Shown piece after piece: positions 1,602 to 22,423 of a stretch of 36,857 nt of DNA; position 1 is the stretch's first letter; every line of letters begins with the position of its first letter. The notes beneath the pieces were generated by a model. It was not told where the DNA came from. It searched no databases and saw nothing but the letters and a program-made list of their open reading frames with translations. This DNA comes from Sedimentisphaerales bacterium (lineage in GTDB: Bacteria > Planctomycetota > Phycisphaerae > Sedimentisphaerales > Anaerobacaceae). The stretch spans positions 1 through 36,857 of the forward strand of contig DATKWV010000053.1 in NCBI GenBank assembly GCA_035529405.1. Reading direction: 5' to 3'. Both the position numbers and the translations under genes were made by a program.

Positions 1602-2345
1602 TCACTTGTGCTGTCCTCTGCATCTTAATCTGTTCCACAGCCCGGCGGGCTTGTCTTTTGAGACCACCGCTTCATGGTCGGCGACGGGCAGGTGCTGAGG
1701 CTTTCTCCAGACACAGATATTGGAAACTATCTGCTCGTCCATTGCAATGTTACTATCTTCACACTCGATTACATAAGCGGGGTATTTCTGATGTAAGGTA
1801 ACGACAACGCCGGGTCTTATGCGCAGACTTTCTATTCTGTGAAGCTGCCGGTCGCTTTTACAATCGACATACGCCACTTTCGCCGACTGCCCGACTTCCA
1901 GTTCGTTTAGCGGTATCACGCAGCTTTGCGCGGAGCGCGAGGAGTTCATGCAGCATTGTCCCTGGGGTATGGGCATACCATGGGGACATGCTTTGGGATG
2001 CCCCAGCAGGGTGCATATACTGTCTAAAAGCTCCGGGCTGACAGTATGCTCGAACTCACAGGCACCGGACTCGAAATCGGCGCCAAGCACGTCGTAAATC
2101 AGCCTTTCGGCAAGTCTGTGTGCGCGAATCATTTGCCTTCCATAGTCCTCGCCCTTGTTTGTAAGTTTGATTTTGCTTCCATCCTCTGCTAATTCGACCA
2201 TATCTTCAGATGACAGTTCGTCAATTATAGCCGGGTCGAGGTTTCCTTCCATGGCCGTCTTCAGAGTCTCCGCTGAATCGGTCCCTTTTTCTTTCATATA
2301 ATACAACCGTTCAATATGCTCGTCTTTTTCCCGCTTGTGACTCAT
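1602..2345 (-). CDS. DtxR/IdeR/MntR-family metal-dependent transcriptional regulator with a C-terminal FeoA/SH3-like domain
   Basis: Contains HRLAERL and GHPKACPHGMPIP motifs plus a C-terminal FeoA-like segment (LNELEVGQSAKVAYV...RIESLRIRPGVVVTL). The start was moved to the ATG at 2345 (MSHKREK), which has GAAAGGA 6 nt upstream and sits just after the feoB stop. Confidence 0.8.
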   Translation of the reverse strand: MSHKREKDEHIERLYYMKEKGTDSAETLKTAMEGNLDPAIIDELSSEDMVELAEDGSKIKLTNKGEDYGRQMIRAHRLAERLIYDVLGADFESGACEFEHTVSPELLDSICTLLGHPKACPHGMPIPQGQCCMNSSRSAQSCVIPLNELEVGQSAKVAYVDCKSDRQLHRIESLRIRPGVVVTLHQKYPAYVIECEDSNIAMDEQIVSNICVWRKPQHLPVADHEAVVSKDKPAGLWNRLRCRGQHK

Positions 2346-2355
2346 AGTATTCCTT

Positions 2356-4329
2356 TCACCACCCAAACAGGATGACCAGCCCCCAGTTTAAGCAGCCTGC
2401 TATTAAGAATGAACTTGCATTTATAATAACCGCCATAGTAAGAGCGCGCCTTGTACCCAACTGCCTGATCATCGCCATAATATTCGCAAAGCAGGGAACA
2501 AACATCGTAGTAATAGTTACAGCGACTATACACTGAACGTAATTAAGCTGTCCTTTTTCTATAAGCTTTATAATCATGCCGGCGGCGGCCTCATGTCTGG
2601 CCATGCACAAAATAAGAGCATCGACCATTTGTACGGGAAGTCCCAGCCAGTCATTCATAACAGGTCTGAGCACATTCTTCGCTGTATCAAGTATCCCTGT
2701 TTTATCAATTACAAACAGAATGACCGCCGCATATATAAATACAGGTACCGCTTCCTTGATAAACCACCAGAGCCTGTAATAGGTTTTTACAATCACCGCT
2801 TTAGGGTTTGGCAGTCGTATTGGGGGCAGTTCCTGTAAAAAATCGCTCCTCTGTTCTTCGGCTAAAATTTTGTTTAAAGTAACCCCTGCAGCAATTTCCA
2901 CAAACGCCAGCACGGAAAAGGCTATCACAAATGCCCTTATGCCCATCCTGCCGAGAATGCTCATATTCAAGGCCATCTGAGCGGCACAGGGAAGAGCAAA
3001 TGCAATTAAGTATATTGCTATATACCTTTCTTTCCTTGAGCGCAGACTCTTTGTTGTCAAAGTAGCCATGGTTTTACAGCCAAAACCAAGCACCAAAGGC
3101 ATAATTGCACTTCCGCTGAGTCCAAACCTGTCAAAAATTCTTTTTGTCAAAACACACAGGTTTGGGATATAACCGATGTCCTCAAGAATATTGAACACAA
3201 TAAAAAAGACGGACAGGATTGGCAGAATCGTTAAAAAGGCATTAGCAAGGCCTAACGATAAAATACCGTAATCACCTATCAAGAATTCATTCAGCCATTG
3301 GATTTTTACAAGGTTATCTATTTTACTTTCAACCGGGAACCATACTGTTTCGTCCATCCAGCCTGCGATTACATTGGCGACATTGACAACAAGGAAATAC
3401 ATAGCAAAAATGACAATAAGCAGAATGGGGATTCCAAACACAGGATGACGGCACAACCGACCAAAACTTTTGGAGAATTGTCCGGGCGCGACCTTCTGCT
3501 TTCTGACGGCCTTGTCGGCAAGATTATCCACCCATTGAGCGCGTTTGTTATGCAGTACATGGCCGAATTTTCCCCTAAACTGCCGGGCGATTCGGTTTAC
3601 CTGGTCATTGAGTTGGGCCACTTTTTCCGGGCCGTATCTTTCTTTGAGATAGTCCGTCAGGAACGGGTCGCCAAGAAGCAGTAAAATCGCGGCTTTGTGC
3701 CCGAAGCCGAATTCCTGCGGCAGCTGCGATTCGAGGGTCAATATTCCATCATCTATGATTGGGCCATACCGCGGCGCAAACTTGCCCACTCGCGCCTTTT
3801 GCAGGACTTTTTTCAACTCGTTGGTACCCAGGCCGTTGACCGCCACCGACTCGACGACAGGAACACCGAGCAGGCGTGATAACTTGTCCGAATCAATCCA
3901 TATACCCCTTCTTGCCGTTTCGTCTATGGCATTGAGGGATATAACCATCGGTATGTCCAGCTCCAAAAGGTCTGCGGTCAGCGTCAGTGACTGTTTGAGC
4001 CGGTTGGCATCGATACACTGGATGAACAGGTCGGGCTTTTCAGAAAAAATCATATCGCGCACGACCAGTTCCTCTTCGGAGTGAATATAAAGACAGTGCA
4101 GGCCGGGCGTATCAATCATTTCGTAAGGCTGACCTTCAATCACACAATTGGCCCTGTTTATGTCCACAGTAGTCAGCGGGTAATTGGCCACAAGCGTGTA
4201 CTTGCCGGTCAGGTTGTTGAACACCTGGCTTTTGCCGGTATTGGGCAGCCCCACTATTGCGATTTTTTTCACCTGGTGTGGCGTGTCCGGCTTGTACATT
4301 AAGGTTTTTTCTGCTGCGGCTGTGCGCAT
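2356..4329 (-). CDS. feoB: Ferrous iron transporter FeoB
   Basis: N-terminal G-domain motifs GLPNTGKS and DTPG are followed by a large polytopic membrane domain; 657 aa. Confidence 0.95.
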   Translation of the reverse strand: MRTAAAEKTLMYKPDTPHQVKKIAIVGLPNTGKSQVFNNLTGKYTLVANYPLTTVDINRANCVIEGQPYEMIDTPGLHCLYIHSEEELVVRDMIFSEKPDLFIQCIDANRLKQSLTLTADLLELDIPMVISLNAIDETARRGIWIDSDKLSRLLGVPVVESVAVNGLGTNELKKVLQKARVGKFAPRYGPIIDDGILTLESQLPQEFGFGHKAAILLLLGDPFLTDYLKERYGPEKVAQLNDQVNRIARQFRGKFGHVLHNKRAQWVDNLADKAVRKQKVAPGQFSKSFGRLCRHPVFGIPILLIVIFAMYFLVVNVANVIAGWMDETVWFPVESKIDNLVKIQWLNEFLIGDYGILSLGLANAFLTILPILSVFFIVFNILEDIGYIPNLCVLTKRIFDRFGLSGSAIMPLVLGFGCKTMATLTTKSLRSRKERYIAIYLIAFALPCAAQMALNMSILGRMGIRAFVIAFSVLAFVEIAAGVTLNKILAEEQRSDFLQELPPIRLPNPKAVIVKTYYRLWWFIKEAVPVFIYAAVILFVIDKTGILDTAKNVLRPVMNDWLGLPVQMVDALILCMARHEAAAGMIIKLIEKGQLNYVQCIVAVTITTMFVPCFANIMAMIRQLGTRRALTMAVIINASSFLIAGCLNWGLVILFGW

Positions 4330-4356
4330 AAAAAAATGGGGCGGCGGTTTACCTGT

Positions 4357-4875
4357 TCAGGTAACCAGTGCAACAATTCCCGCACCGAGCAGTATCCAGA
4401 TGGGATTGACTTTATACTTAAACAGACAGACCATGCTTGCTGCTGCGATTAAAAGCGTTTTTATATCAATTATGGAGCTTCTTCCGATGCTGACCGCGGC
4501 ATCGAAGACCATACCGATAACCGCTATGCGCGCCCCTCGGAGGAAATTGGCGAGTATTTTATTTTCGCGGAATTTCCTGATGGCCTCCGTAGCCAGGCAT
4601 ATCATTATGAACGAAGGCGCAATTACGCTTAAGGTCGAAACAACCGCACCGAGGATGCCGCAGACCTTGTATCCTATGAATGTTGCCGAGATTATAACCG
4701 GCCCGGGGGTGACCTGCCCCAGCGTGATGGCATCAACGAATTCGGTTTTAGTCAGCCAGCCGTACCTTACAACCACTTCGTTTTCGACCATCGGAATAAT
4801 CACGATGCCGCCGCCGAAGCTGAACGCGCCGATTTTCAGAAATACCCACGCTAATCTGAGTAAATTGGTTATCAT
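4357..4875 (-). CDS. Chromate ion transporter (CHR) family protein, short single-domain form, second half of a pair
   Basis: Shows FSFGGGIVIIPMVENE and LGQVTPGPVI motifs. Its start overlaps the upstream stop (ATGA at 4872-4875). Confidence 0.8.
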   Translation of the reverse strand: MITNLLRLAWVFLKIGAFSFGGGIVIIPMVENEVVVRYGWLTKTEFVDAITLGQVTPGPVIISATFIGYKVCGILGAVVSTLSVIAPSFIMICLATEAIRKFRENKILANFLRGARIAVIGMVFDAAVSIGRSSIIDIKTLLIAAASMVCLFKYKVNPIWILLGAGIVALVT

Positions 4876-5660
4876 TTCAGGTTTTCTTTGGCGGCATCTT
4901 TGTGGTAAACAACGATGCCTGCGATTCCGGCAAGAGACACTATTATCACTATATCGAGCTTAAAGATTAACGACGACGCGAAGGCCCAGATTAAAACACA
5001 CAGTTCACGATAACCCTTCATTTCCGCTTTAGTCAGTCTCATGCCCACAGATATAATCAAACCGGTCACCGCAGCGCCCAGACACTTGAATACTTCCTCA
5101 ACTTTCGGCGTTATCCGGTACCTGTCATAAAGCATCGCAAGGATAATCATTAAAACAAATGAAGGCAGGATGAACACGACGGTGGAAATTATCGCGCCGG
5201 ACCATTTTTTCAGTTTATAGCCGGTGTACGTAACGATGTCCATTGTCACCGGTCCGGGCAGCACATCACCCAGCACCGCACCTTCGAGAAAATCTTCGTT
5301 GGTGAGAATCTGTCTTCGCCGCACAAGCTCATCTTCCAGCAGTGTAAACACAGCCATCGGACCGCCGAAACCGAAGCAGCCTATTTTCAGGAACATAGTC
5401 CAGTCATTAAATCTTTCGACAAGACCGGGTTTGGGCTGCTTTCGCTGCTGGGTCAGCATGTATTTTTTCTTATAAAAACCGGCCAGCAGCTTTTCAAGTT
5501 CTCTGGCTTTGCTTTCATCGCCGATTTCACGATACAATTCGTAGGCCTGCTGCCAGAGTTCGGCTACAAGTTTCAGGCTCTGTGTATCGGCACAGCGAGC
5601 AAAGACGTGCAGCCCTCGCATATACAGTTGTTCAGCCTGCTGTTTTACCTGTTCATCCAT
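4872..5660 (-). CDS. CHR family protein, first half of the pair, with a ~75-aa helical N-terminal extension
   Basis: Shows FGFGGPMAVFTLLEDE and LGDVLPGPVT motifs. The N-terminus (AEQLYMRGL...WQQAYELYREIGDESKARELEKLL) looks like a genuine helical hairpin. An alternative internal start at 5459 cannot be excluded. Confidence 0.7.
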   Translation of the reverse strand: MDEQVKQQAEQLYMRGLHVFARCADTQSLKLVAELWQQAYELYREIGDESKARELEKLLAGFYKKKYMLTQQRKQPKPGLVERFNDWTMFLKIGCFGFGGPMAVFTLLEDELVRRRQILTNEDFLEGAVLGDVLPGPVTMDIVTYTGYKLKKWSGAIISTVVFILPSFVLMIILAMLYDRYRITPKVEEVFKCLGAAVTGLIISVGMRLTKAEMKGYRELCVLIWAFASSLIFKLDIVIIVSLAGIAGIVVYHKDAAKENLK

Positions 5661-5713: not shown

Positions 5714-6343
5714 CTAAGGTATGGTTACGCCTTCCATCTCGCCTTCGCCGATTCTGATGGTGGATTTTATTTTTTGGCCGTTTCTGATTATGTTTATTTT
5801 TACATCGGACTCGGGTCTTGCGCGGGCAACGATGGATTTAAAGTGTTTGAGGTTTTTGACTTTGTGGCCGTTGAACCGCTGGATACTGTCTCCGATTTGC
5901 AGGCCTGCCCTTTGGGCCCTGCCGCCGGCATATACCGCGTGCACAATTACGCTTGACTTGCCCTGCAGGGCCGCCGCTTCCAGAGCCAGGGGCTTGATTA
6001 AGACCTGCTTAACGGGAATACCTGCTGCCTGGGCCTTGCCCCAGTTGGCGCTGTAAAGCGGACAATCACGAATGTTGCACGTTCCCCGGCTGTCTAAGAA
6101 CCCCGGGCAGTATGGACAGCGGGTCAAAGCAACGCTCTGGATGCGGATACTTTCCGACACTGCCGGCTGTGTTGCAAAATCAACAGCATCGCCGGCAGAG
6201 AAGCTGGCTATTGCATACACAACGGAAATAACAATGACAATCGCCAGAATCCAGAGCTGGTTCTGTGTGTTTTCGAGGAAACAATCCCCGGGTAATGTCT
6301 CCTGGCGAACATCAGGGTGATTTTTGTTATGTCTGTGGTACAT
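5714..6343 (-). CDS. Membrane-anchored PDZ-domain protein with a four-Cys cluster. It sits in the MamP position but has no CXXCH.
   Basis: One TM (LWILAIVIVISVVYAIA), then CPYCPG-x9-CNIRDCP, then a PDZ domain (VIVHAVYAGGRAQRAGLQIGDSIQRFNGHKV...). The track ORF begins with TTG at 6373; the ATG at 6343 is preferred. Both overlap the upstream gene end. Confidence 0.7.
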   Translation of the reverse strand: MYHRHNKNHPDVRQETLPGDCFLENTQNQLWILAIVIVISVVYAIASFSAGDAVDFATQPAVSESIRIQSVALTRCPYCPGFLDSRGTCNIRDCPLYSANWGKAQAAGIPVKQVLIKPLALEAAALQGKSSVIVHAVYAGGRAQRAGLQIGDSIQRFNGHKVKNLKHFKSIVARARPESDVKINIIRNGQKIKSTIRIGEGEMEGVTIP

Positions 6344-7262
6344 AGGTCCGCGTTTGAACACTTTCTGCGGCAACGGTTTTTTTACGGCGGCCTGCAGCCG
6401 GCAGCAGCTGTACGGAGATTTGAGAAATATTTTTCATCTTTGTGTGCAAAACATTTTTAATTTCGCCGACTGTCTGCAGGGCGGTGCTCAAAGGCCAGTG
6501 ACGCGGCACCGACACGCTCATATCCACCAGCAGGCTTCGGCCGGCAAATCTCGCTGTGACGCGCTCGATACCGCCGACGCCATCGATATTGTCCATAAGG
6601 TCGCGTATGTGCGCCTCTTCTACCCGCAGAGACACGTCCATAAGCCCTTTTACAGCTTTCTTGATACCGTCGAAAGCCACCTTTATAATCAGAACGCAAA
6701 TGACAATCGACACAATATGGTCGAGCCTGGCCAGGCCTAAATTACTTCCCACTACCGCAACGATTACGGCCACAGAAGTACCGACATCCGCGCGGCTGAC
6801 CTGGGCGTTGGCCAGAATTGCCGCACTTGACAGTTTCTGGCCCGCACACCGGCCGTACTTGAATGCCATCTGATTGGCAATAATTGATATAACGGCAGCG
6901 AAAATGGCAATCAGTCTCGGGGGCCTTTCGGGCCCGACTATCATCATCTCGGCAAAAGCAAAAAACATATAAGCCACAGCCACAACCATAAGCAGCATGT
7001 TCACAACACCCGAAGCCAGAAACTCCACCTTGCCGTAACCGTAAGGAAATTTTTCGTCTGCGGCCCTTGAGGCCATTTTGAGACTGACCAGCACCGCGGC
7101 AGTAATGATAAAATTGGCCAGAGACTGAAAAGCATCCGTATGCAGAGACCTGCTGTTACTGAGAATCGCAAAGGAAAACTTCAGAAAAAAAAGGGCCAGA
7201 TTTATGGCCAGAATCGTCCATTCGACCCTTTTGCCGCACCGGATACAACGCTGAGAAATCAT
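6327..7262 (-). CDS. Cation diffusion facilitator (CDF) paralogue, MamB/MamM-like, with a non-canonical metal site
   Basis: Has an N-terminal CIRCGK, the EKFPYGYGKVEF motif, six TMs and a C-terminal cytoplasmic domain. The positions that carry the transport-site residues in the other two CDF copies read SLHTDAF and AQVSRAD here. Confidence 0.8.
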   Translation of the reverse strand: MISQRCIRCGKRVEWTILAINLALFFLKFSFAILSNSRSLHTDAFQSLANFIITAAVLVSLKMASRAADEKFPYGYGKVEFLASGVVNMLLMVVAVAYMFFAFAEMMIVGPERPPRLIAIFAAVISIIANQMAFKYGRCAGQKLSSAAILANAQVSRADVGTSVAVIVAVVGSNLGLARLDHIVSIVICVLIIKVAFDGIKKAVKGLMDVSLRVEEAHIRDLMDNIDGVGGIERVTARFAGRSLLVDMSVSVPRHWPLSTALQTVGEIKNVLHTKMKNISQISVQLLPAAGRRKKTVAAESVQTRTYVPQT

Positions 7263-7265
7263 ATC

Positions 7266-8144
7266 TTACTCGCAAATAACATTAACACTGCCGAGGTGTT
7301 CAACTCTGTCGGCGACGGCGTTCTGGATTCGCGTTGATATTGTGCTCACCTGGGCGATAGTCCTTTCCGGCGGCAGACAAACATACAAATCCACCCAGAC
7401 GGTTCTGCCGATTTGTCTTGTTTTTACGGCCTTTATCTGCCTGACCTCTGGTATGCCGGCCAGGGCCTGCCTTATCAAGCGCACGTCACTATCGATGATG
7501 GCGCCGTCAATAAGTCCGGTGCTGCCCTGATAAAATATTTCAATACTCAGGAAAATCAAATGCCCCGCCTCGAATACCGCCACCAGCGCATCGAGAAAAA
7601 GGTATCCCATCATACTGCCCAGCGTGGCAACAACCACCGCCAGCGAAGCGATAACATCGGCACGATGGTGCTTGCCGTGGGCAAGCAGGGCGGGACTGTT
7701 TATATGCTTGTGGGCACAGATATTGAATCGGTAGATTAGTTCGTTGGCCAAAACAGAAATAGCCGCTGCAACCAGCGTGGCCCAGTGCGGCCGGGCGTGT
7801 TCGCCCAGGAAAATAATCCGCACGCAGTCGGCAAGAATAAAAATTGTAGCGCCGAGGATAAGTATGCTGGTGAACACACAGACGATGTATTCGGCGTTGC
7901 CGTGGCCGTATGGATGTTCTTCGTCGGGCGGTCTTGACGCTATTTTCAAACCCACCAGCACTGCAACGCCGGAAAGTACGTCATGAAACGAATAAAGGGC
8001 GCTTGCAATTAATGCGCGGCTGCCGGTGAAGATACCGACAGCGCCCTTGAAAATCATCAGAAGAAAACTGTCCCACAGCCCAATCCATGAAAGCTGTGTT
8101 GCACAGCGGGCACATTTTTGTTTTTCAGACACGTCTTTGCTCAT
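7266..8144 (-). CDS. mamM: CDF transporter, MamM-like
   Basis: CARCAT, ALYSFHDV, EHPYGHGNAEY and GKHHRADVIAS closely resemble remembered Magnetospirillum MamM motifs (CTVCSR, AMYSLKDM, AKHHHGDATAS). The track start is GTG at 8165; the ATG at 8144 is preferred. Confidence 0.75.
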   Translation of the reverse strand: MSKDVSEKQKCARCATQLSWIGLWDSFLLMIFKGAVGIFTGSRALIASALYSFHDVLSGVAVLVGLKIASRPPDEEHPYGHGNAEYIVCVFTSILILGATIFILADCVRIIFLGEHARPHWATLVAAAISVLANELIYRFNICAHKHINSPALLAHGKHHRADVIASLAVVVATLGSMMGYLFLDALVAVFEAGHLIFLSIEIFYQGSTGLIDGAIIDSDVRLIRQALAGIPEVRQIKAVKTRQIGRTVWVDLYVCLPPERTIAQVSTISTRIQNAVADRVEHLGSVNVICE

Positions 8145-8284
8145 TAAAGTGTTCCAAAGAATCACGGATTAATTAAAGTATGGAAGCCTGCCTGAGTTCG
8201 GAAGGCGACAAAAACCCGTCCCCCGCTGAGATTATGATATACTAAAAAGGCTTGGGCATTATTGTGCGATAATTGTCGCGGTCT

Positions 8285-8491
8285 TTACGCTGCGGTCTGG
8301 CCCTGGGCGGCAGCGAATCCCTGCCGGAAGGCCTGCCTGGCTTCGGCAGCAATTTCGCCGGTCCTTTTTTTTAAGTTTACAGCGTGTTTTTTGGCCGCCT
8401 TGAGCATTTTGGGGCTTTTCTTCTGTACGACCTTATAAACAACATACCCGGCAACGATAACGCCGGCGCCGATGAGGATACCTTTTACCAT
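8285..8491 (-). CDS. Small membrane-anchored protein: one TM plus a basic amphipathic tail (YtxH-like appearance)
   Basis: AAGGAG lies 8 nt upstream of the ATG. The sequence has GILIGAGVIVAGYVVYKVV followed by a Lys/Ala-rich helix. The gene lies directly downstream of the mamK-like gene. Confidence 0.6.
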   Translation of the reverse strand: MVKGILIGAGVIVAGYVVYKVVQKKSPKMLKAAKKHAVNLKKRTGEIAAEARQAFRQGFAAAQGQTAA

Positions 8492-8543
8492 TTTTCAGAC
8501 TCCTTTTTTGATTGTTGCGGTAAATTCGCGTTCGATAAAACTT

Positions 8544-9686
8544 TCAACTATGGCACGGAACTTTCGGCTTAACCAGAAGCTGCCAGAAATGCCGGGGCAT
8601 TCGCTGTGCCATTTTAAGCGCTCCGTTTGCGCCGGCAAAGACCGGCTCTTCGGCACATGTTACCCTGCCGCCGCCAAGCTCGTTCATCCCCTGCTCGATG
8701 AGGGTCTTTAGACCTGTCATTTGACTTCCGCCGCCGGCCAGTATCACATTGCTGCGGATGCCCTCCTGAAATTCAGGGTCATAGGTGGCAATCAGGCGCC
8801 CTATCGAGTTGATGATACCGGGCACAATACTTCTGCAGGCTGTTCGCAGCTCGCCGGTTATGTCGAAATCCTTCGGTCTGCCCTGCACCGGAAAGCGCGC
8901 CATAACGCGGTCGGCGTTATCCGAAACGAAACCATACCGTTCTTTCAGGGCCCTGACCATGTTGATATTGAATTGGGCGCTGGGATATTTTCTGCGAATA
9001 AGCTCCGACAGTTTTTCATCGACAAAATCACCGGCCTGGTCGAGGGTAATCTGGTCCTGGGCTTCGGGCAAGGTACCGTGCAGGCGGCAGAGGTCAACCG
9101 TTCCGGCGCCGATGTCGATAATCAGCGCGCGGTCGAGGATACCCAGGCCGTAAGCAACGGAAAACGGTTCGGAAACAATCATAACCGCGTCGAGTATTCC
9201 TCTGGCGGCCTCGATAAGAACGCGTTTGCTTGAAATGCTGGCCCGTGCCGGCGCCCCGATTACGCCATAGACAGGCTGGTCGGGCCTGCAGTTTGTCCGC
9301 TGCAGCAGATGACGGACCAGCTGCTGGGCGGCAACAAGGTTTTTGTTCTGCCCGGCCCTGCCGTCATTTCTTATTACGCCGTGTTCCAGCGGCCGCACAA
9401 GCTCCAGTGACAGCCGGTGCTTCAGTGCCAGGTCGCCGAACAAGGGCTCGGCACCGAGCAGCTCCTCGGAGATATTGTCTTTGGGATAGCCGACATAAGT
9501 AGGCACTACTTCGCGCACCCCGTTGCTGGCGGCTATGGATGCCCGCGACGTACCCAGGTCGATACCCACGAAGACCGCTTCATCGCCGGCGGCAAACGCG
9601 CCGAAAGTCTCGGACAACGGATACCCTTGGCTGATTTTTTCCGATGCCGGTTTGCTAACGTGTTTTTTAACCTGTTTTTTTGCCAT
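8544..9686 (-). CDS. mamK: Actin-like filament protein MamK
   Basis: GIDLGTS, VGYPKD, IGAPARAS, VSEPFSVAYGLG, DIGAGTVDLC, LAGGGS and a C-terminal P..FWQLL are collinear with remembered MamK motifs (GIDLGTS, VVGYPKD, IGVPARAS, VSEPFMVGYGL, DIGAGTTDIC, AGGGS, PPQYWRQL). Confidence 0.85.
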   Translation of the reverse strand: MAKKQVKKHVSKPASEKISQGYPLSETFGAFAAGDEAVFVGIDLGTSRASIAASNGVREVVPTYVGYPKDNISEELLGAEPLFGDLALKHRLSLELVRPLEHGVIRNDGRAGQNKNLVAAQQLVRHLLQRTNCRPDQPVYGVIGAPARASISSKRVLIEAARGILDAVMIVSEPFSVAYGLGILDRALIIDIGAGTVDLCRLHGTLPEAQDQITLDQAGDFVDEKLSELIRRKYPSAQFNINMVRALKERYGFVSDNADRVMARFPVQGRPKDFDITGELRTACRSIVPGIINSIGRLIATYDPEFQEGIRSNVILAGGGSQMTGLKTLIEQGMNELGGGRVTCAEEPVFAGANGALKMAQRMPRHFWQLLVKPKVPCHS

Positions 9687-11503: not shown

Positions 11504-11516
11504 ACTTTTCCTCCTT

Positions 11517-15392: not shown

Positions 15393-15599
15393 CTATTGCC
15401 GCACTATGTCCAGCAGAACTACCCTGGCTACATCAATATTCGCGACCACGGTCTTGAAAGCCCGAATATCGTTCACTTTCTGATTATTGACCTTCTTAAC
15501 CACATCTGCCGGCGCAATGCCGGCCTCCATTGCTCCATTTTTACCTGATAGTATGACAGGTAGCGCACCGGCCGCGGTAACGATGAGGGGCCGTTGCAT
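15393..15599 (-). CDS. Orphan partial PDZ-like ORF in the +1 frame relative to the end of the mamE-like gene. It may be a separate overlapping gene or a frameshifted MamE C-terminus.
   Basis: LPVILSGKNGAMEAGIAPADVVKKVNNQKVNDIRAFKTVVANIDVARVVLLDIVRQ aligns residue-for-residue in pattern with the PDZ of 5714..6343. It overlaps the upstream CDS by 59 nt. Confidence 0.4.
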   Translation of the reverse strand: MQRPLIVTAAGALPVILSGKNGAMEAGIAPADVVKKVNNQKVNDIRAFKTVVANIDVARVVLLDIVRQ

Positions 15600-17595
15600 T
15601 TTTTGTTATGACCGGCGCAGCAGCAAGTACGCCGCCGGCATTTGTGGGCACTACAGTATGACAGGTAATACACGGACCACGGTAACGATGAGGGGCCTTT
15701 GCGTCTTTTGTTATGGGCGGCGGATCAGGAAGTATGTCGCCGGCGTCTGTGGGAAGCTGGCCTCCGGTCGTCATGAAAATGTGGCAGTTAGTGCATGCAC
15801 GTCCCCGATTGCGATGTGGGCGCAGTGCACCCGGCTGGATCGGCTGGGCCGCCTCCATTTGAGCAAAGCCCAGCATATTGGCGTTCCGTGCCGTCATAAT
15901 AAATGTCATCTTCGTGCCCCGACGGCTGACTTGCACCTGTGCCTGCTTTCCTTCCTGCACCCGTTCACGCTGCGTAGCCTCGAAAAATGCTCTCAGGTCA
16001 GGTGTAGGAATACCCCCGATGGACTGGACCATATCCCCGGCCAGGATGCCGGACTCGGCGGATTCGAGCGTAACCTCGTCAACCAGCACGCCGGTTTCCC
16101 CCTTCGGAATCCGATATTCGGTGGCCAGTTCCGCAGTCAGCGGAATTACCTCCAAACCCAGCCAGTGCCCTTCGATAAAGTCCTTTCCTGCGGCGTTCTG
16201 CTCGCGGGGTGAGGGCAATGTTTCAGTCGGTGCCGTCGCCAGCGCAACGGTCTGAAGGGCCAGCGTGTTTCCTTGAGGCGCCTTGGGAAGCAGGCTGCGG
16301 ACGTTAGGCGGTTCCGGCCGAAGCGTACAAACCAAAGTTTTCTTACTGTTATTTCTGAAAAAAGTAAGCTCTGCCGTTTCACCGGCCTGCCTTCCATCCA
16401 GAAAAGACCAGAGCATTTTGTCGTTTCTGATGCGCTTGCGGTCAACTCGAAAGATTACGTCTCCTCTCATAAGGCCCGCCGCTGCCGCAGGAGAATTGAG
16501 AAAAACGCGGTTGACCAGCACACCATAATTAATGGGCAAATCGAACTCTCTGGCGACCACATCGTCCACGCCCCTGACGGCGATACCCAGCCAGCAGGGT
16601 CGTGAAGCAACAGTCCTTGCCATCATGCGCAGATTAGCCAAGGCCGGGACATTGAAGGCGTTGGTATTGCCCGCAGCACGTTGTATATTCCCCCCAGCCG
16701 CCGGTGACGGCACTATCTCTATAAAATCACCGAAAGCTGCTTTTGCCTGATTAACCGGCACTGCAAAACCGATACCGCTGAAAGATGTTGTCGGTGAATA
16801 AATAGCCGTATTGATACCGATAACCTGTCCCTGGGGATTGACCAGCGCGCCGCCGCTGGAACCGGGATTAATGGAAGCGTCGGTTTGAATCAGGCCTTTT
16901 ATGAGTTTGTCACCGGCTGTAAGTGTGCGGTCCGTATTGCTGATAATTCCTGCTGATGCGCTCTGCGACAAACCGAAAGGATTGCCTATTGCCACAACCT
17001 GCTGGCCAATAAATACCTTTTTGGAATCGCCCAGCGGCGCGGGTGTAAAAGTTTCTTTGGAAGCAGTGTTTACCTTTATAATCGCCAAATCCAGGTCCGG
17101 CCTGCTGTCGATAAGCTCAGCCGAATAGGATTTAATCAGCTGGTCATAACTGAAGGTAACAACGATATTCTCAGCCCCATTGACAACATGATAGTTGGTA
17201 AGGATATAGCCGAGATGATGTACAATGATACCGCTGGCGGTTTGTTCCATGGCCCCGGAGGTGTTAATACCCACCACAGCCGGCGAAACAATTCCGATGG
17301 CACGATTAAAGGACATTACCTGCGGCGTGGCACCGGTCACCGAATCCGGATTTTGTTTGCCGTACCAGGGCGGAACAAAGCTTGCTGTTCTGACATCAGC
17401 GTTTGCTGCCGATGGAACCGAGTTTCTTCGCAATGCGCTCCCAAAAGACATCGGTCCCCTGTTTCTTTGAGCCTGCCGTATGTCATCGGCATAGTAAAAT
17501 GCAAGCACGATTGTAGCGGCAATCAATACTCCTACCGCCGCAAGCCACGGCCCCAGCGTCTTTCGTGCACAAGTGTCGTTACCGTTATCAGCCAT
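15541..17595 (-). CDS. mamE: MamE-like HtrA serine protease: TM, active trypsin domain, two PDZ domains, three C-terminal magnetochrome (CXXCH) units
   Basis: The catalytic triad context is intact (LTNYHVV, DLAIIK, GSSGGAL). There are two PDZ-like segments. The C-terminus carries PHRNRGRACTNCH, PHRYRGPCITCH and PHRYRGRCATCH. Confidence 0.85.
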   Translation of the reverse strand: MADNGNDTCARKTLGPWLAAVGVLIAATIVLAFYYADDIRQAQRNRGPMSFGSALRRNSVPSAANADVRTASFVPPWYGKQNPDSVTGATPQVMSFNRAIGIVSPAVVGINTSGAMEQTASGIIVHHLGYILTNYHVVNGAENIVVTFSYDQLIKSYSAELIDSRPDLDLAIIKVNTASKETFTPAPLGDSKKVFIGQQVVAIGNPFGLSQSASAGIISNTDRTLTAGDKLIKGLIQTDASINPGSSGGALVNPQGQVIGINTAIYSPTTSFSGIGFAVPVNQAKAAFGDFIEIVPSPAAGGNIQRAAGNTNAFNVPALANLRMMARTVASRPCWLGIAVRGVDDVVAREFDLPINYGVLVNRVFLNSPAAAAGLMRGDVIFRVDRKRIRNDKMLWSFLDGRQAGETAELTFFRNNSKKTLVCTLRPEPPNVRSLLPKAPQGNTLALQTVALATAPTETLPSPREQNAAGKDFIEGHWLGLEVIPLTAELATEYRIPKGETGVLVDEVTLESAESGILAGDMVQSIGGIPTPDLRAFFEATQRERVQEGKQAQVQVSRRGTKMTFIMTARNANMLGFAQMEAAQPIQPGALRPHRNRGRACTNCHIFMTTGGQLPTDAGDILPDPPPITKDAKAPHRYRGPCITCHTVVPTNAGGVLAAAPVITKNATAPHRYRGRCATCHTIR
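15544..15753 (-). repeat. Tandem 105-nt (35-aa) duplication encoding magnetochrome units 2 and 3
   Basis: agtatgacaggta..ggtaacgatgaggggcc..ttttgttatg occurs at about 15551 and again at about 15656. Confidence 0.85.
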
Positions 17596-17611: not shown

Positions 17612-20116
17612 CTAAGCTTTTATCCTCAGATTAAAGCGTTGTCCCTGGCGATAAACATTCAAAGATATATCTCTTTGCGGGTCTGTTTTATTCATGACCT
17701 TTATGAAATCGACGATTGTTTCGACCGGCTGGTTGCCGATTGCATTGATTACATCTCCTGCCAACAGCCCGGCAGCAGCAGCCTGGCCGGCACTTTCGGT
17801 AATAACAACCCCTTTTTCTCCTTCCGGAATATTGTAAGTCAATGCCAATACGGGCGATAATGCCTCCACCCCCATTCCCAGCACCTCAACTTCATCGGCT
17901 CCCACCTCTCCGCCGGCCAGCACACCCGACAATCCCGGCGGCTGGACATTCTGAGGATTGAACGGCTCGAAAGGCTGTGTGCCCAGTGCCAGTGCCTGTG
18001 CCTGAATTGCTGCCATACCCTGTGCTGCGGGGCCTTCGGTTTCCGGAAGGAAAAGGTCCCAGCCGGCCCCTTGTAAGCCAAACGGCCTGGCAATCAGCAC
18101 CGGTGAAATGCTTATGGTCTTGCCGTCTCGATAAATGGTCAGCTTCATTTGCTGGCCTGGTTTTTTCTTCACGAGCACCCCTTCAAGCATCGCACCATCC
18201 CTGATTGCGCGACCGTCGGCACGGATTATCACATCGCCTCTCTGCAGCCCGGCTATCCTGCACGGCGAATTACCGAAAACTTCCATCACAAGCGCCCCTC
18301 GCGCCATAGGCAGGCCCACAAAAGTTTTAATTTGCCTGTCAACCGCCCTGACCCGTATGCCAAGCCACGGTCCATCCTGCTGACCGGCCGCCTGACGGAA
18401 TTGTCCTGCCGGCGGACACCACGGATAAAGCCCCAGGCCCCGTCGCATTGCCTGACTTTCAGGACCAGCGGCTTGTTGCATCCAGCTTTGCGGCGGACAC
18501 CAGGGATTTAATCCAAGGCCCGGCTGCGCAGGGAGGTTCCCCGTATTAACGCCGCCCTGCAGCCCGCCTACCGGCGGACACCAGGGGTATAAACCTTTGC
18601 CTTTCTGTACGGAACCGCCCAACTGGTTACGGGCCCAATTCGGAGCACCGCGCAAAACTTCGGTCACATTGCTCGGGGCGGTTTCTATAAACTCGGGAAA
18701 CGCTGCTTTGGCAGGGTCAATCGGGCTGGCAAAACCGATACCGCTGAATGCCTGTGTCGGCGAATAAATTGCCGTGTTCAGCCCTATGACCTCACCATTG
18801 ACGTTCACAAGCGGCCCGCCGCTTGAGCCGGGATTGATGGGCGCATCGGTCTGGATAAAGTTCGTGAAGGTCTTGTTACCGACAGCGAGCGTGCGCTGGG
18901 TGTTGCTGATAATCCCGAACGTTACACTTTGCTGCAGGCCGTAGGGACTGCCGACGGCCAATACCTCATCCCCGACAGATACGGCACTGCTGTTGCCGAT
19001 TAGTGCAGGGCTGAACTGCTCGTTGCCTTTGGAAAGTATCTTCAGTATGGCGAAATCAAGCTCGGGGGCCTCGTCAATCAATTGGGCCGGATAAGTCTTC
19101 GTTACCTGCCCAACGCTGAGCGTAACGGTGATATCCCTGGCGCCGTGTACGACGTGATGATTAGTCAGAACATAGCCGTTGCGATTTACAATCACTCCGG
19201 AACCGCCCCTGCCAAGTGCCTGAAACTGCTTGTCATTCTGCGGCGGCAAACCGGGCGCATTGGCGATTGTCTGCCAGCCGGGAAGACACGCCCCGGGCAC
19301 ATTGGCCATTGTCTGCCAGCCGCCCGGCGGACAAACCCAGGGTGCGCCTTGCCTCATCATCTGCGTGCCGCAGCTCGGGCAGCCGAGAGTATAGGCTGGA
19401 ACGCCGGCTCGATGAGGCATACTGGTGCCGCAATTGGGACATAGCAGAAATCCGCCGGAGCCCATTCCCCAGCCGCCGTTCCGTTGGCCCCAGACATACT
19501 GTGCAGAACCTGCCGCTTCCGGCGACTGGTCTGCGGGCTGGTTTTGGCCGGCCATCGGCTGGCCGGCACCGGGTACAGGATAAGGTCCCGGCGCACCTTC
19601 GCGCATCATTTGCGTTCCGCAGTTCGGGCAATTGACGGTGTAGGCGGGGACAGCTCTTTGATGAGGTACCCTTGTGCCGCAATTTGGGCAGGCCAGGTAG
19701 CCGCCGGGGCCCATTCCCCAGCCGCCCATCCTGCCTGCACCGGCTGCAGGCTGCGCCTGCACAGCAGGGCCGCCCTGACTTATAAAACTGCTGCCTACGT
19801 TGACACTTACCACCGAAGGCGCAATTTTGGCAACGATGTTTTTGTACGACATCTGTTGCGAAAAGGCGACCGGCTGGCCCTGAAAGGCAGCCTGTAATTG
19901 CTGCTGGGCGCCAAAGCCCCACTCTTCGAGAACGCCGGCCTGGAGTTCGGCCTGGGCCTGACGAAGATTTCGCTGGCTCTGGCGGTCCCAGTAAACAACC
20001 GCAACTATAACCAGGATGATTAACGTTATTAATACTGTCAGCAGGTTCCTGTTGCTGCCTGGGCCGCTTTGTGAGTTATCCACTGTCGACTCATCGCCTT
20101 TGGTTTTCTCTTCCAT
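17612..20116 (-). CDS. Second HtrA-family serine protease (MamE paralogue without magnetochrome). It carries a duplicated zinc-ribbon insert, Cys-Pro repeats and two PDZ domains.
   Basis: LTNHHVV, DFAILK and GSSGGPL are intact. The track start is GTG at 20122; the ATG at 20116 has AAGGTGG about 7 nt upstream. Confidence 0.85.
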   Translation of the reverse strand: MEEKTKGDESTVDNSQSGPGSNRNLLTVLITLIILVIVAVVYWDRQSQRNLRQAQAELQAGVLEEWGFGAQQQLQAAFQGQPVAFSQQMSYKNIVAKIAPSVVSVNVGSSFISQGGPAVQAQPAAGAGRMGGWGMGPGGYLACPNCGTRVPHQRAVPAYTVNCPNCGTQMMREGAPGPYPVPGAGQPMAGQNQPADQSPEAAGSAQYVWGQRNGGWGMGSGGFLLCPNCGTSMPHRAGVPAYTLGCPSCGTQMMRQGAPWVCPPGGWQTMANVPGACLPGWQTIANAPGLPPQNDKQFQALGRGGSGVIVNRNGYVLTNHHVVHGARDITVTLSVGQVTKTYPAQLIDEAPELDFAILKILSKGNEQFSPALIGNSSAVSVGDEVLAVGSPYGLQQSVTFGIISNTQRTLAVGNKTFTNFIQTDAPINPGSSGGPLVNVNGEVIGLNTAIYSPTQAFSGIGFASPIDPAKAAFPEFIETAPSNVTEVLRGAPNWARNQLGGSVQKGKGLYPWCPPVGGLQGGVNTGNLPAQPGLGLNPWCPPQSWMQQAAGPESQAMRRGLGLYPWCPPAGQFRQAAGQQDGPWLGIRVRAVDRQIKTFVGLPMARGALVMEVFGNSPCRIAGLQRGDVIIRADGRAIRDGAMLEGVLVKKKPGQQMKLTIYRDGKTISISPVLIARPFGLQGAGWDLFLPETEGPAAQGMAAIQAQALALGTQPFEPFNPQNVQPPGLSGVLAGGEVGADEVEVLGMGVEALSPVLALTYNIPEGEKGVVITESAGQAAAAGLLAGDVINAIGNQPVETIVDFIKVMNKTDPQRDISLNVYRQGQRFNLRIKA
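18407..18601 (-). repeat. Three G-L-(Y/N)-P-W-C-P-P repeats between the trypsin domain and PDZ1
   Basis: The copies read KGKGLYPWCPP, GLGLNPWCPP and RGLGLYPWCPP. A fourth, related PWVCPP lies at 19325-19342. Confidence 0.85.
19337..19726 (-). repeat. Two copies of a ~45-aa unit, GGWGMGxGG(Y/F)LxCPNCGT-x17-CPxCGTQMMRxGAP, inside the protease gene
   Basis: Both copies were read directly from the translation. They lie between the first trypsin strand (APSVVSVNVG) and GSGVIVNRNGYVLTNHH. Confidence 0.85.
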
Positions 20117-20283
20117 ATCCACACCACCTTTCGACTTGGGGTCGATTTGTCAATTGCCGGTTTCGAACACCTTCAGGAAATTGCAAATCCTGACGGACCG
20201 CCGCGCCCGAACCGGCACATAGTCCACCGCCGGCCGGCCCTTTCAAAATCAGCTTTGCAATTATCCCGGGCAATCATTTTCAG

Positions 20284-20469
20284 CTACTGGGCTGCGTTTT
20301 GTCTGTATTTTCTTCTTATCGCAACGGCTATAGCCAGGGCCCCTCCGATGATAAGCCCCAGAATAACCAGTCCCTGGATGACTTCAACGGCAAACCACCA
20401 CCAGTAGGCCAGGGCCCAGACACCGACTGCCAGGGACACCGCACCGATAATTCCCAATCTCATTATCAT
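20284..20469 (-). CDS. mamI: MamI-like small two-TM protein, copy 1
   Basis: MRLGIIGAVSLAVGVWALAYWWWFAVEVIQGLVILGLIIGGALAIAVAI matches the remembered MamI pattern (G..A.ALG..G...WWW.V.EF.RG..P.AL..G..ALA.G). The likely start is the ATG at 20463. Confidence 0.6.
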   Translation of the reverse strand: MIMRLGIIGAVSLAVGVWALAYWWWFAVEVIQGLVILGLIIGGALAIAVAIRRKYRQNAAQ

Positions 20470-20764: not shown

Positions 20765-20956
20765 TCATTTTTCTTTTGCGGATGCTTTCTCTTTGCCCAT
20801 TCTTCTTAAAGCAACGGCTATAGCCAGAGCCCCGCCGAGCACAAGAATCAGGGCAATCAGCCCCTCAATTATCTCGATAATAAACCACCGGCAATACACC
20901 ATCGCCAGAATTCCAAGCCCCATCGCGATTGCTCCAATTATTCCCAATCTCATCAT
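20765..20956 (-). CDS. mamI: MamI-like small two-TM protein, copy 2
   Basis: It is a paralogue of 20284..20469 (MMRLGIIGAIAMGLGILAMVYCRWFIIEIIEGLIALILVLGGALAIAVALRR). Its start overlaps the mamQ-like stop (ATGA). Confidence 0.55.
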   Translation of the reverse strand: MMRLGIIGAIAMGLGILAMVYCRWFIIEIIEGLIALILVLGGALAIAVALRRMGKEKASAKEK

Positions 20957-21741
20957 TTTGCTCCTTCAGTTTTGTCGGCATTGCCGGCGCCGACCTGCGG
21001 CTGCTGGTTGACACTGGCGCCCTGCCGGCTTATGTTCAGGTCGATGACAGGAACTTCCACATTCTCTGTCAGGCCTATGTACTCGATAGCATTATGGCGA
21101 TAAATAAATGCGAACACGTTTCCGGGAAATATTGTTATGTATTGATTATATATTTCACCGGCCTTGTTATACTTTTCCTTGGCGTTGGCGATTCGGTTCT
21201 CGGTGTTGGCCGCTTCCTTTATCAAATCCTGCACGGATTGTGTAGCCTTAAGGTCGGGATACTGCTCGGCCAATGCCACCAACTTCGACAATGTATGTTC
21301 CAGTACGTTGCCCGTGCTGACACCGGCGGTCTGGGAACTTCGGAGCATCTTCAGGGTTTCTCTTGCGTCTGAGACGTATTTGAACACCTCCTGCTCGTAT
21401 GCAGCGTATTTGCTTACAAGCGAGACCACGTTGGGAATCAGGTTCTGCCTTCTCTGCAGTTCGAAGTCCACGTCGGCTCGCCGGGCCCATGCAACGGTTC
21501 GCCATGAATTAAGGCGGTTGTACTGGAAAACCGCTTCGGCAATAACTACCAGCACCGCCAGAGCAATGACGATTCTTACGCACCACATCGCTGTGCGCCG
21601 ACTGCCGAGGGCTTTTTTGATATTCCTGATTTTGTCCTGTTTTGGACCGGCTGTTTTGCTCGCCGTACCCGTACAGCCGGCAGCGGCAGGCTTGAGTTCC
21701 TCTGCGTACAGCCTTTTTACAACGTTGCCAATCCGACTCAT
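20953..21741 (-). CDS. mamQ: LemA-family membrane protein, MamQ-like
   Basis: One TM is followed by a LemA core (RRQNLIPNVVSLVSKYAAYEQEVF...LAEQYPDLKATQSVQDL...ENRIANAKEKYNKAGEIYNQYITIFPGNVFA). GGGAAGG lies 6 nt upstream of the ATG. Confidence 0.8.
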   Translation of the reverse strand: MSRIGNVVKRLYAEELKPAAAGCTGTASKTAGPKQDKIRNIKKALGSRRTAMWCVRIVIALAVLVVIAEAVFQYNRLNSWRTVAWARRADVDFELQRRQNLIPNVVSLVSKYAAYEQEVFKYVSDARETLKMLRSSQTAGVSTGNVLEHTLSKLVALAEQYPDLKATQSVQDLIKEAANTENRIANAKEKYNKAGEIYNQYITIFPGNVFAFIYRHNAIEYIGLTENVEVPVIDLNISRQGASVNQQPQVGAGNADKTEGAK

Positions 21742-21811
21742 TTACGACCTTCCCTTTTCGTAAGAGTTTCGGACTGCTTTGTCGGCAATCCGCAAACTGC
21801 GGCCATATTAC

Positions 21812-22423
21812 TTAAACGGCCGCTTCTTCGGCCTCGACGGCCTTTTTGAACGCCTCTACAGCTTTTTCGTGCTCGCCCTGCCCGTCGTAAATCAGGCCCA
21901 GACGGTAGTGGTATTTGTCCACAGCGGGTGCTAATTTTATGGCCTTGCTGATTGACTCGATAGCCGGCTTGTGGTCGCCTTTCTTATCCAGAACCACACC
22001 GAGCGTGTAATGAAAATCAGCGCGTTCAGGCTCAAGCTTCACCGCCTTCCTGTACGAGTCAACAGCACTGGCCAGTGCACCGGTCCTGTCATATAGCGCA
22101 CCGAGCCTGTAGTGAGTACTCGAGCGGTCCGGGTCGAGTTTCAGTACCTTCTGGAAGCAGGCGATTGCTTCTTCGTCCAGTCGTTTACCCATGTAGGCCG
22201 CGCCCAACTGGTACTGGATTTCAGCGTCGTCGCCGTTAAGAGCCAGGGCCTTCTGACACAATGAGACGGCCTGGTCGTAATCACCTCTGTTGATACAGCC
22301 TTTGGCCCTGTCGCGATAGACCTGCACCAGCTCTGTGGAATCGAGTCGAAAAGCCCTCTCGAGCTTGTCGAGGTATAAACCCAGAACATGGCCAAAACCA
22401 CGGAATGAGAACTTTTCCAACAT
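21812..22423 (-). CDS. mamA: TPR-repeat protein, MamA-like; first gene of the cluster
   Basis: The 203-aa product has about 5 consecutive TPR units (e.g. AIACFQKVLKLDPDRSSTHYRLGALY, AVDSYRKAVKLEPERADFHYTLGVVL, AIESISKAIKLAPAVDKYHYRLGLIY). GGGAGG lies 8 nt upstream of the ATG. Confidence 0.75.
   Translation of the reverse strand: MLEKFSFRGFGHVLGLYLDKLERAFRLDSTELVQVYRDRAKGCINRGDYDQAVSLCQKALALNGDDAEIQYQLGAAYMGKRLDEEAIACFQKVLKLDPDRSSTHYRLGALYDRTGALASAVDSYRKAVKLEPERADFHYTLGVVLDKKGDHKPAIESISKAIKLAPAVDKYHYRLGLIYDGQGEHEKAVEAFKKAVEAEEAAV

Follow-up and report, generated by a model that had tools for sequence, protein, structure and literature searches.

Contig DATKWV010000053.1 of Sedimentisphaerales bacterium (assembly GCA_035529405.1), analyzed here over 36,857 nt (the window, to which all coordinates refer), carries a continuous run of minus-strand genes at 1602-22423 that most probably represents a Planctomycetota (Phycisphaerae) magnetosome gene cluster (MGC) from a bacterium not yet in culture, with mamA as the probable start of one or a few long transcripts. 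MGCs are already known from Planctomycetota, and what is added here is another cluster with unusual domain fusions. The run comprises 24 open reading frames (ORFs), or 25 if a 45-aa PDZ fragment is counted. Families were assigned by Pfam and NCBIfam scans of the window ORFs together with comparison to PDB sequences. An original prediction had described about 25 genes on one strand, with gaps mostly below 100 nt, that encode the core mam set as one compact block; this description stands, as does every coordinate that it gave.

Read from mamA to the distal end, the junctions between successive genes measure 70, -4, 295, 161, 16, 10, 48, 15, 15, -29, 18, 98, 82, 20, 96, 52, 119, 3, -47, 53, -4, 27 and -11 nt. 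Twenty of these 23 are shorter than 100 nt, five are overlaps, and the widest gaps are those of 295, 161 and 119 nt; no additional small genes were found in the first two, which lie on either side of the second mamI copy. The ATGA overlaps at 20953-20956 (mamQ/mamI) and 4872-4875 (the halves of a chromate transporter) and the 3-nt gap at 7263-7265 are exact, and the order of the genes is indeed unlike the mamHIEJKLMNOPAQRBSTUV of Magnetospirillum.

Core genes, host and conservation

The core set is borne out by checks on the actin-like protein, the cation diffusion facilitators (CDFs) and the magnetochromes. The actin-like filament protein encoded by mamK (380 aa; 8544..9686) scores 425 bits against the MamK family NF040964, above the cut-off of 400, versus 72 bits for MreB. 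Among PDB sequences it matches 5LJW, 5JYG and 5LJV, which we take to be the MamK of Magnetospirillum, with 271 bits, and MreB with 50 bits; the protein is MamK and not MreB, as predicted. In a neighbor-joining tree the window MamK falls within a Planctomycetota MGC clade, with Omnitrophota next. The two expected CDF genes likewise lie nearer MamB and MamM than FieF: mamB (299 aa; 14445..15344), with Cation_efflux and ZT_dimer domains, has CDF_MamB NF033616 as its top family (294 bits against a cut-off of 350; FieF 118), and mamM (299 aa, 292 aa as called; 7266..8165) has CDF_MamM NF033615 (265 bits, below the 350-bit equivalog cut-off; FieF 121). The prediction had counted only these two; there are in fact three CDF genes, the third of which (311 aa; 6327..7262) scores 193 bits against both MamM and MamB and 81 against FieF.

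The CXXCH units predicted at 15544-15819 correspond exactly to residues P593-R684 of a 684-aa MamE protein, with CXXCH at residues 601, 642 and 677, each within a PHRxRGxCxxCH unit. The Pfam magnetochrome domain PF18509 (MCR) matches three stretches of this protein with 69.4 bits, more than twice the gathering score of 30.4. The magnetochrome has been described as specific to magnetotactic bacteria (PMC3971196).

At the mamA end of the block lie several smaller genes that are putatively assigned to the core set. The mamA product (203 aa; 21812..22423) has five TPR repeats and matches MamA NF040959 (153 bits, cut-off 200) better than any other TPR family. The product of mamQ (262 aa, LemA family with 120 bits in Pfam; 20953..21741) has MamQ NF040966 as its sole NCBIfam match (110 bits, cut-off 250). 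There are two copies of mamI. Copy 1 (63 aa, two transmembrane (TM) helices; 20765..20956), whose start overlaps the mamQ stop, has MamI NF040963 as its sole NCBIfam match with 28.5 bits and a precomputed Pfam match to MamI PF26391 that is flagged as weak. Copy 2 (61 aa; 20284..20469) scores 34 bits against NF040963, has an unflagged precomputed PF26391 match, and is linked by phmmer to MamI ORFs in clusters from Nitrospirota (1e-6 to 7e-9); both copies fall below the NCBIfam cut-off of 80 bits. The positions of the MamI, MamA and MamQ genes are conserved in relatives.

As the prediction had suggested, the contig was placed taxonomically by way of acs, a gene of the right flank: its product is 82-85% identical to many proteins, and all of the named ones belong to Planctomycetota, Phycisphaerae, Phycisphaerales or Sedimentisphaerales. 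The closest relatives of MamK (70-84% identical) include metagenome-assembled genomes (MAGs) labelled Planctomycetes. In data with one genome per species, which do not include the species of the window, the best MamK match is 79% identical, and the top MAGs (Pirellulales-labelled, CSMAG_2751, MAG_11118_pl_115 and MAG_18080_pl_157) are followed by Omnitrophota.

Contigs from six independent samples carry the block with 99.7-100% identity; the source samples are those behind ERZ27256834/27/28, JGI 3300031565/66 and SRR8554511. No ORF of the block is disrupted in the window, and all 24 genes are likewise intact in four other assemblies. The same gene order, at 45-83% amino acid identity, was found in three other organisms, namely L009 (JAUXAB010000017.1, Phycisphaerae MAG CSMAG_2751) and the metagenome contigs L098 and L099, the latter two carrying the half from mamA to a gene for a 76-aa protein in the same order at 45-67% identity. 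All known carriers are metagenome contigs or MAGs. This recurrence in six samples and three other organisms means, at the level of sequence, that the block is not a chance pattern. The ratio of nonsynonymous to synonymous substitution rates (dN/dS) is 0.135 (mamA) and 0.187 against a further related locus, L094, and lies between 0.06 and 0.13 (mamM 0.061) in the comparison with L009, for which dS is close to saturation. These values of 0.06-0.19 indicate purifying selection on the cluster. In L009, the orthologues of MamB and of the third CDF are 79% and 68% identical, respectively.

A MamK-like gene alone would not, on these comparisons, indicate a magnetosome cluster. Lone MamK-like actins of 46-53% identity occur in dozens of MAGs from Nitrospirota and from Planctomycetota, among the latter Tepidisphaerales, Phycisphaerales and others (many of the loci L022-L085); no other mam gene lies within 10 kb of them, and in the tree those copies that were sampled are placed outside the MGC clade to which the window MamK belongs. 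A second kind of Planctomycetota mamK locus was read over about 10 kb on either side (L011-L014, including MAG_11118_pl_115 and MAG_18080_pl_157). It contains two or three genes for Man1-like proteins and one for a 119-aa protein, both of which are described below, and one for a 964-977-aa protein that combines two PDZ domains with a membrane pyrophosphatase (762 bits). The rest are a distant feoB and genes for a degenerate CDF, a NosR/NapH-like ferredoxin membrane protein and proteins that consist of PDZ domains only.

Fused proteases and small membrane proteins

Two MamE proteins are encoded side by side, both scoring below the NCBIfam MamE cut-off of 800 bits. MamE-1 (836 aa; 17612..20122; Trypsin_2 117 bits, PDZ_2 94 bits, MamE NF040960 257 bits) consists, in order, of a TM anchor, two duplicated double CPxCG zinc-ribbons, an HtrA protease domain, three GLxPWCPP repeats and two PDZ domains, and is devoid of magnetochromes. 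Its gene has internal DNA repeats at 19341-19482/19590-19731 and at 18410-18602. The double zinc-ribbon occurs twice on the N-terminal side of the protease (19233-19731), and the protease is separated from the PDZ domains by the three GLxPWCPP repeats, each of 27 aa (18410-18602); both features are conserved in relatives. We know of no role for either in MamE.

MamE-2 (684 aa; 15541..17595; MamE 241 bits) begins with a TM helix, an HtrA protease and a PDZ domain, and continues into a MamP-like PDZ domain followed by the three magnetochromes. This C-terminal module of 245 residues (~15544-16278) matches MamP NF040965 with 226 bits over residues 457-648. Because residues 440-650 also match the sequence of the MamP crystal structure 4JJ0 (128 bits, E 4e-36), we regard the protein as a MamE-MamP fusion. 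An alignment of the three trypsin domains of the cluster finds the His/Asp/Ser triad intact in MamE-1 and MamE-2, both of which are predicted to be active-type HtrA proteases.

Within 15550-15753, two of the three magnetochrome units form an 82%-identical 99-nt DNA repeat with a spacing of 105 nt, which points to a fairly recent duplication of the unit. Three units are present in the window and in L009, and two in L097-L099. In L098 and L099 it is the first MamE that carries zinc ribbons, PWCPP repeats and two magnetochromes, and the second has none; domains have therefore been shuffled between the MamE paralogues.

One sample (ERZ27256828; L003) contains a variant in which a stop codon at Ser433 of mamE-1 (18825), one residue before the catalytic serine, yields two ORFs. 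This could be a natural knock-out tolerated by virtue of the paralogue, or an assembly error.

The MamP position itself, as known from mamP of Nitrospirota, is occupied by a 219-aa protein (5714..6373; PDZ_2 44 bits) composed of a TM helix, a four-cysteine knuckle (Cys86/89/99/104) and a PDZ domain, which is 56% identical in L009. The original prediction had assigned a PDZ protein to this place, and its position agrees; it has no CXXCH haem motif, and the MamP module is on MamE-2. A further 45-aa ORF (15393..15530), the C-terminal half of a PDZ domain by weak PDZ_2/PDZ_6 matches, is called as a gene in all assemblies and is 53% identical in L009. It is a candidate remnant or micro-ORF.

A second fusion joins MamO-like and MamN-like parts. 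The 868-aa MamO/N protein (11823..14429; Trypsin_2, PDZ_2) runs from a TM helix through a trypsin-fold pseudoprotease and a PDZ domain into a MamN-type (CitMHS/SLC13) permease, which matches MamN NF040989 with 327 bits over residues 392-866; the transporter fused to the dead protease is thus MamN-type and not TauE. In the trypsin-domain alignment it retains none of the catalytic residues His, Asp and Ser, and neither do the orthologues of L009, L098 and L099, with LTSAPL in place of LTNHHV and ENAGG in place of GSSGG. The protease domain is predicted from these changes to be catalytically dead, a MamO-like situation. The MamO of Magnetospirillum is also a catalytically dead protease, reportedly from the 2016 work of Hershey et al. 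A search of 1.84 billion representative proteins returned one full-length cluster at the 50%-identity level (859 aa, 66% identical) and about a dozen other clusters of at least 780 aa with N-terminal extensions, and by these counts the architecture is rare. In Desulfamplus magnetovallimortis BW-1, the protein annotated as MamN (628 aa, TM-PDZ-permease) is 36% identical to MamO/N residues 255-862.

Between MamO/N and the distal CDF genes lies a series of small genes in which the prediction had recognized neither mamL nor any mad or man gene. That stands for Mad2, Mad10 and Mad31, whose profiles match nothing; it does not stand for Man2/MamL-like, putatively Man3-like and probably Man1-like proteins, which are present. 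The mamL/man2-like gene (96 aa, two TM helices; 11517..11807; Pfam LapA_dom 58 bits) matches a Man2/MamL family profile at E 1.7e-24 (81 bits), the family taking in the Man2 of the Nitrospirota member Ca. Magnetominusculus xianensis HCH-1 and the MamL of BW-1, names that come from exact look-ups. BLASTP gave no alignment of the 96-aa protein with BW-1 MamL, and the link is the family profile. In BW-1, the ORF named MamL is of the LapA family and adjoins a MamB/M-type CDF. In HCH-1, the ORFs around mamK comprise Man1 upstream, Man2 of the LapA family, and Man3 just before mamP.

The man3-like gene (68 aa, one TM helix; 8285..8491) is aligned by hhalign with the Man3 family at a probability of 95.4% and E 1.7e-8 over 39 columns that include the TM helix, and the Man3 profile matches it at E 5e-5. 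The 150-aa protein encoded directly upstream of mamK (9783..10235) is probably Man1-like, with hhalign giving a probability of 75% and E 2.4e-5 against the Man1 family. A direct search with the HCH-1 Man1 profile gave no match to it; the link was made through hhalign and the reverse profile search, in which the family profile of the 150-aa protein picks up ORFs of the Man1 family from Desulfobacterota and from HCH-1. A homologue stands directly upstream of mamK in 12 loci of Planctomycetota and Omnitrophota. An AlphaFold2 model consists of a long helix and a small helical domain at a mean pLDDT of 56.6, and a fold search with so uncertain a model was dropped. Surveys list man genes in Nitrospirota, Desulfobacterota and Nitrospinota only (PMC7602337, PMC9376291), so their likenesses in a planctomycete cluster are a modest extension.

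A 119-aa soluble helical protein (10256..10615), which has no Pfam or NCBIfam match, is lineage-specific: its homologues lie upstream of mamK, adjoining the Man1-like genes, in L007 and L010-L014. Three more small membrane proteins complete the series. One of 91 aa (11270..11545; DUF6677/TM2-like, DUF6677 25 bits) occupies the equivalent position in L009, L098 and L099. The other two, with 76 aa (11021..11251) and 74 aa (69 aa as called; 10698..10922), are single-TM paralogues of one another. The 76-aa gene has a DNA repeat in common with 10831-10854, and two copies exist in L009 also. Both proteins (10698-11251) have a TM helix and a motif, RQQ..L.LRRL...V.VLEEWG, in common with residues 28-70 of MamE-1 (~19913-20041), as if they had been copied from a MamE membrane anchor. 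When a search begun from the 76-aa protein was iterated, it strayed into MamE sequences, and only the common N-terminal motif was retained from it.

Iron genes, upstream element and flanks

FeoB and a DtxR-type regulator had been placed at the distal end of the block, and they are there. The feoB gene (657 aa; 2356..4329; FeoB_N, Gate and FeoB_C domains) encodes a ferrous iron transporter of an MGC-linked type, with 48-62% identity to the mamK-adjacent feoB of loci from Desulfobacterota, Hydrogenedentota, Omnitrophota and Planctomycetota; feoB is usually part of MGCs (PMC7602337). Next to it, a DtxR-family metalloregulator with a C-terminal FeoA/SH3 domain (254 aa, 247 as called; 1602..2366; Fe_dep_repr_C 79 bits, FeoA 40 bits) matches the DtxR/IdeR entries of the PDB, and its gene is paired with feoB beside mamK in seven other loci at 33-61% identity. 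In L009, only fragments of feoB and the DtxR gene are found (7793-8497), just upstream of man1-mamK, which is the site of the intact copies in the loci of Desulfobacterota and Hydrogenedentota. In the lineage of the window, both genes seem to have been relocated distally. On the mamA side of feoB, a split chromate-transporter (CHR/ChrA) pair of 262 and 172 aa (4357..5660; Chromate_transp 145 and 175 bits), the halves of which overlap, follows the gene of the 219-aa PDZ protein here as it does in L009 (71% and 83% identity).

Upstream of mamA, positions 22424..22975 on the minus strand hold a candidate regulatory RNA or leader. This element of about 550 nt is ~94% identical at the nucleotide level to L094, whose MamA is 87-89% identical at the amino acid level, and the sequence further upstream is poorly conserved between the two. 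It has a fold z-score of -3.67 and an intrinsic terminator at 22742-22705 with a perfect 17-bp stem followed by a U-run. Comparison with L094 revealed no conserved ORF in 22424-22975, and Rfam searches of 22400-23900 at relaxed thresholds gave chance-level matches only. The element could be a small RNA or an attenuator-type leader of the mam operon, and we infer that it belongs to the cluster. Two nearby ORFs were rejected as genes: one of 138 aa (23351-23767), which has no domain, is non-protein-like and is not conserved in L094, and one of 15 aa behind an AGGAGG motif, which is frameshifted in L094. In a sister subclade (L095-L099), the mamA start is overlapped by the gene of a helix-turn-helix protein (195 aa; e.g. 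L099 9396-9983) whose C-terminal domain is Cys-rich and which looks like a dedicated regulator; the lineage of the window is devoid of this gene and has the conserved non-coding element instead.

The right flank (23784-36857) is an acetate/acyl-CoA neighborhood. One of its genes encodes a porin, for whose exact sequence a look-up returned no record; the TTGACA-16-TATAAT promoter of this gene is perfect. The others are acs and the genes of a SatP/YaaH channel, a deacetylase, an acetyl-CoA hydrolase-GNAT fusion and an ADP-forming acyl-CoA synthetase. From 34592 onward comEC runs off the end of the window. The stop codon of another assembly is changed here, and the possibility that comEC is disrupted was rejected, its translation being intact up to the window end.

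The absence of island hallmarks noted in the prediction is confirmed: no tRNA was found in the window, no integrase or transposase domain in scans of the flanks, no long repeats flanking the block, and no Rfam family at gathering thresholds in the whole window. GC content at third codon positions (GC3) is 0.48-0.65 inside the cluster and 0.54-0.63 outside, no different from the flanks. In one assembly (ERZ27256834), the contig with the cluster ends at 23801 and the contig with acs begins at 23661. Since the overlap is exactly 141 nt, a k-mer size suggested by the "k141" contig names, the assembly graph branches at 23661-23801. Contigs from JGI and Logan begin at 22747, right at the terminator hairpin. 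Such breaks at the edge of the cluster suggest a graph branch or strain variation. In L094, an ORF of porin size lies upstream of mamA in divergent orientation, separated by an alignable spacer of ~1 kb, and because of this same divergent neighbor and spacer we take the adjacency of cluster and flank to be native.

Alternative explanations and relation to known clusters

The roles proposed for these proteins are those of their homologues in Magnetospirillum and Desulfovibrio magneticus (reviewed in PMC7017999 and PMC9840458). Shaping of the membrane compartment would fall to MamQ, MamB, the two MamI proteins and the MamL/Man2-like protein, and the sorting and processing of its proteins to MamA together with the MamE proteases. 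The DtxR-type iron sensor would control FeoB, through which Fe(II) would enter the cell, and from there MamB, MamM and the third CDF would move it into the vesicle. The Fe(II)/Fe(III) ratio would be set by the magnetochromes of the MamE/MamP fusion. The dead protease with its PDZ domain and MamN permease would serve in mineral nucleation and in the handling of protons or anions, possibly with help from the ChrA pair as regards anions. MamK filaments, together with the Man1-like and Man3-like proteins, would align the particles into a chain.

Several observations weigh against the interpretation as a magnetosome cluster. Only MamK and the magnetochrome clear their family cut-offs, and the other Mam scores fall below; most family scores are indeed under the NCBI equivalog cut-offs, the models having apparently been trained mainly on Proteobacteria. 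Profiles of Mad2, Mad10, Mad31, Man4 and Man5, built from Nitrospirota and Desulfobacterota loci, found no match among window ORFs of at least 30 aa at E up to 1, and the NCBIfam scan of the window ORFs found neither a TauE-type MamO C-terminus nor MamT. The mamE-1 of one sample's variant is interrupted by a stop codon. Finally, no magnetosome-bearing cell of the Planctomycetota has been documented, the phylum owing its place among magnetotactic phyla to gene content alone (PMC9160268).

The last two points would equally suit a cluster that is silent or conditionally cryptic, that is, inherited intact and either unexpressed or insufficient for a mineral in this host. There is a precedent in the phototroph Rhodovastum atsumiense (bioRxiv 10.1101/2022.04.19.488322), and the strong terminator between the upstream region and mamA would also fit. 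Against this, the low dN/dS values and a gene order kept across species that are 65-89% identical speak for long-term selection for function, the 24 genes are intact in the window and the four other assemblies, and the stop variant affects the sole gene that has an active paralogue next door. We therefore consider a silent cluster unlikely. That Mam parts have been re-used for a magnetosome-like iron compartment without a magnetic crystal, serving iron storage or detoxification, is an explanation of low probability. It gains from the second kind of planctomycete mamK locus, which has no canonical core within 10 kb, from the stand-alone MamK-like genes that are common in Planctomycetota without an MGC, and from the unusual MamO/N and ChrA architecture; the window nevertheless has the full core set, including the magnetochrome and a MamK above its cut-off, and we know of no other function for genes in such a combination. 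An assembly chimera, in which the magnetosome cluster of another phylum was joined in silico to planctomycete housekeeping genes, would account for the k-mer-size overlap and the contigs starting at 22747, but is highly improbable given the homologous porin and spacer in L094, a left flank that is continuous in several assemblies, equal GC3 inside and outside, and the fact that the nearest relatives of both MamK and the whole cluster are Planctomycetota.

A planctomycete magnetosome cluster has precedents. The Planctomycetes have been counted as a magnetotactic phylum since 2017-2018 from gene clusters alone (PMC5955933, PMC9160268), and MGCs were reported by Lin et al. 2018 (PMC5955933), Uzun et al. 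2020 (PMC7449369) and Lin et al. 2020 (PMC7602337). Because these clusters are already in the literature, the current picture is unchanged by the present one. In the second of these studies, new members from the Phycisphaerae orders SG8-4 (three MAGs) and UBA1845 (one single-cell genome) group with clusters of putative greigite type, and the third describes the first magnetite-type Planctomycetota clusters, grouping with Omnitrophota; the literature thus disagrees on the mineral of the Planctomycetota/Omnitrophota clade. Published planctomycete MGCs agree with the window in phylum, class and a GC content of ~49-51%, and likewise have man1-like and 119-aa genes upstream of mamK. The cluster had been called divergent in the original prediction, which is apt relative to Magnetospirillum, whereas within the published Planctomycetota/Omnitrophota lineage it is typical.

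The most similar cluster is that of L009, with 47-83% amino acid identity and the same number of magnetochromes. It belongs to another species or genus, has its fragmentary feoB/DtxR genes upstream of man1-mamK rather than distally, and has an extra divergent CDF after mamK, and its MAG carries a second mamK locus (L008). A literature search on sample and MAG identifiers found no paper describing the cluster. In MAG_11118_pl_115 and MAG_18080_pl_157, MamK is 72-74% identical to that of the window, but a different gene set lies within 10 kb of it, with the PDZ-fused pyrophosphatase, a 30%-identical feoB and the degenerate CDF.

Likenesses extend to other phyla. The Nitrospirota MGC of HCH-1 (...mamM mamP man3 mad10 man2 mamK man1; PMC9376291) has in common with the window a man1-like/mamK/man3-like/mamM module, the Man2/MamL LapA protein, a mamA-mamI-mamE-mamQ neighborhood and a MamP with magnetochromes. 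Protein identities to Nitrospirota are 27-51%, the five Mad and Man profiles named above are without matches in the window, and only in the window are MamP fused to MamE and MamO to MamN, with three CDFs and a ChrA pair. BW-1 (L054), which is cultured and makes both magnetite and greigite (PMC7017999), has MamL beside a MamB/M-type CDF and a PDZ-MamN permease, and a Man1-family gene upstream of mamK; in contrast to the window, its MamN has no pseudoprotease domain and mad genes are present, and identities are 37-49%. With the mamAB operon of Magnetospirillum, the window has in common MamA, B, E, I, K, an L-like protein, M, N, an O-like protein, P and Q, as well as magnetochromes. Its order is different, however, and mamH, J, R, S, T, U, mms6 and mamGFDC are missing; in Magnetospirillum the MamO protease is fused to TauE and MamP is free-standing, whereas in the window MamO is fused to PDZ and MamN, and MamP is on MamE.

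Taken further, the cluster might be a self-sufficient program that makes a planctomycete magnetotactic, which would be a first for the phylum, with the leader RNA gating the operon and the so-called Nitrospirota-specific man1-3 being ancient partners of MamK. This joint reading, which combines the leader or attenuator at 22424-22975, more conserved than the coding genes, with the presence of man1, man2 and man3 in common among Planctomycetota, Omnitrophota and Desulfobacterota, is speculative and, taken as a whole, rather doubtful. As a magnetosome gene cluster that is intact, under purifying selection and present in several samples, the block at 1602-22423 provides a concrete target in the search for the first magnetosome-bearing planctomycete. 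At ~21 kb on one strand, with iron uptake and a regulator included, it would be among the more compact full sets for transplantation. The third CDF, the man-like genes that adjoin mamK, the MamO/N protein and the MamE-MamP protein with its three magnetochromes may be regarded as natural experiments in the rewiring of redox, nucleation and chain-building modules, and these same features bear on the debate over vertical versus horizontal inheritance of magnetosome genes.

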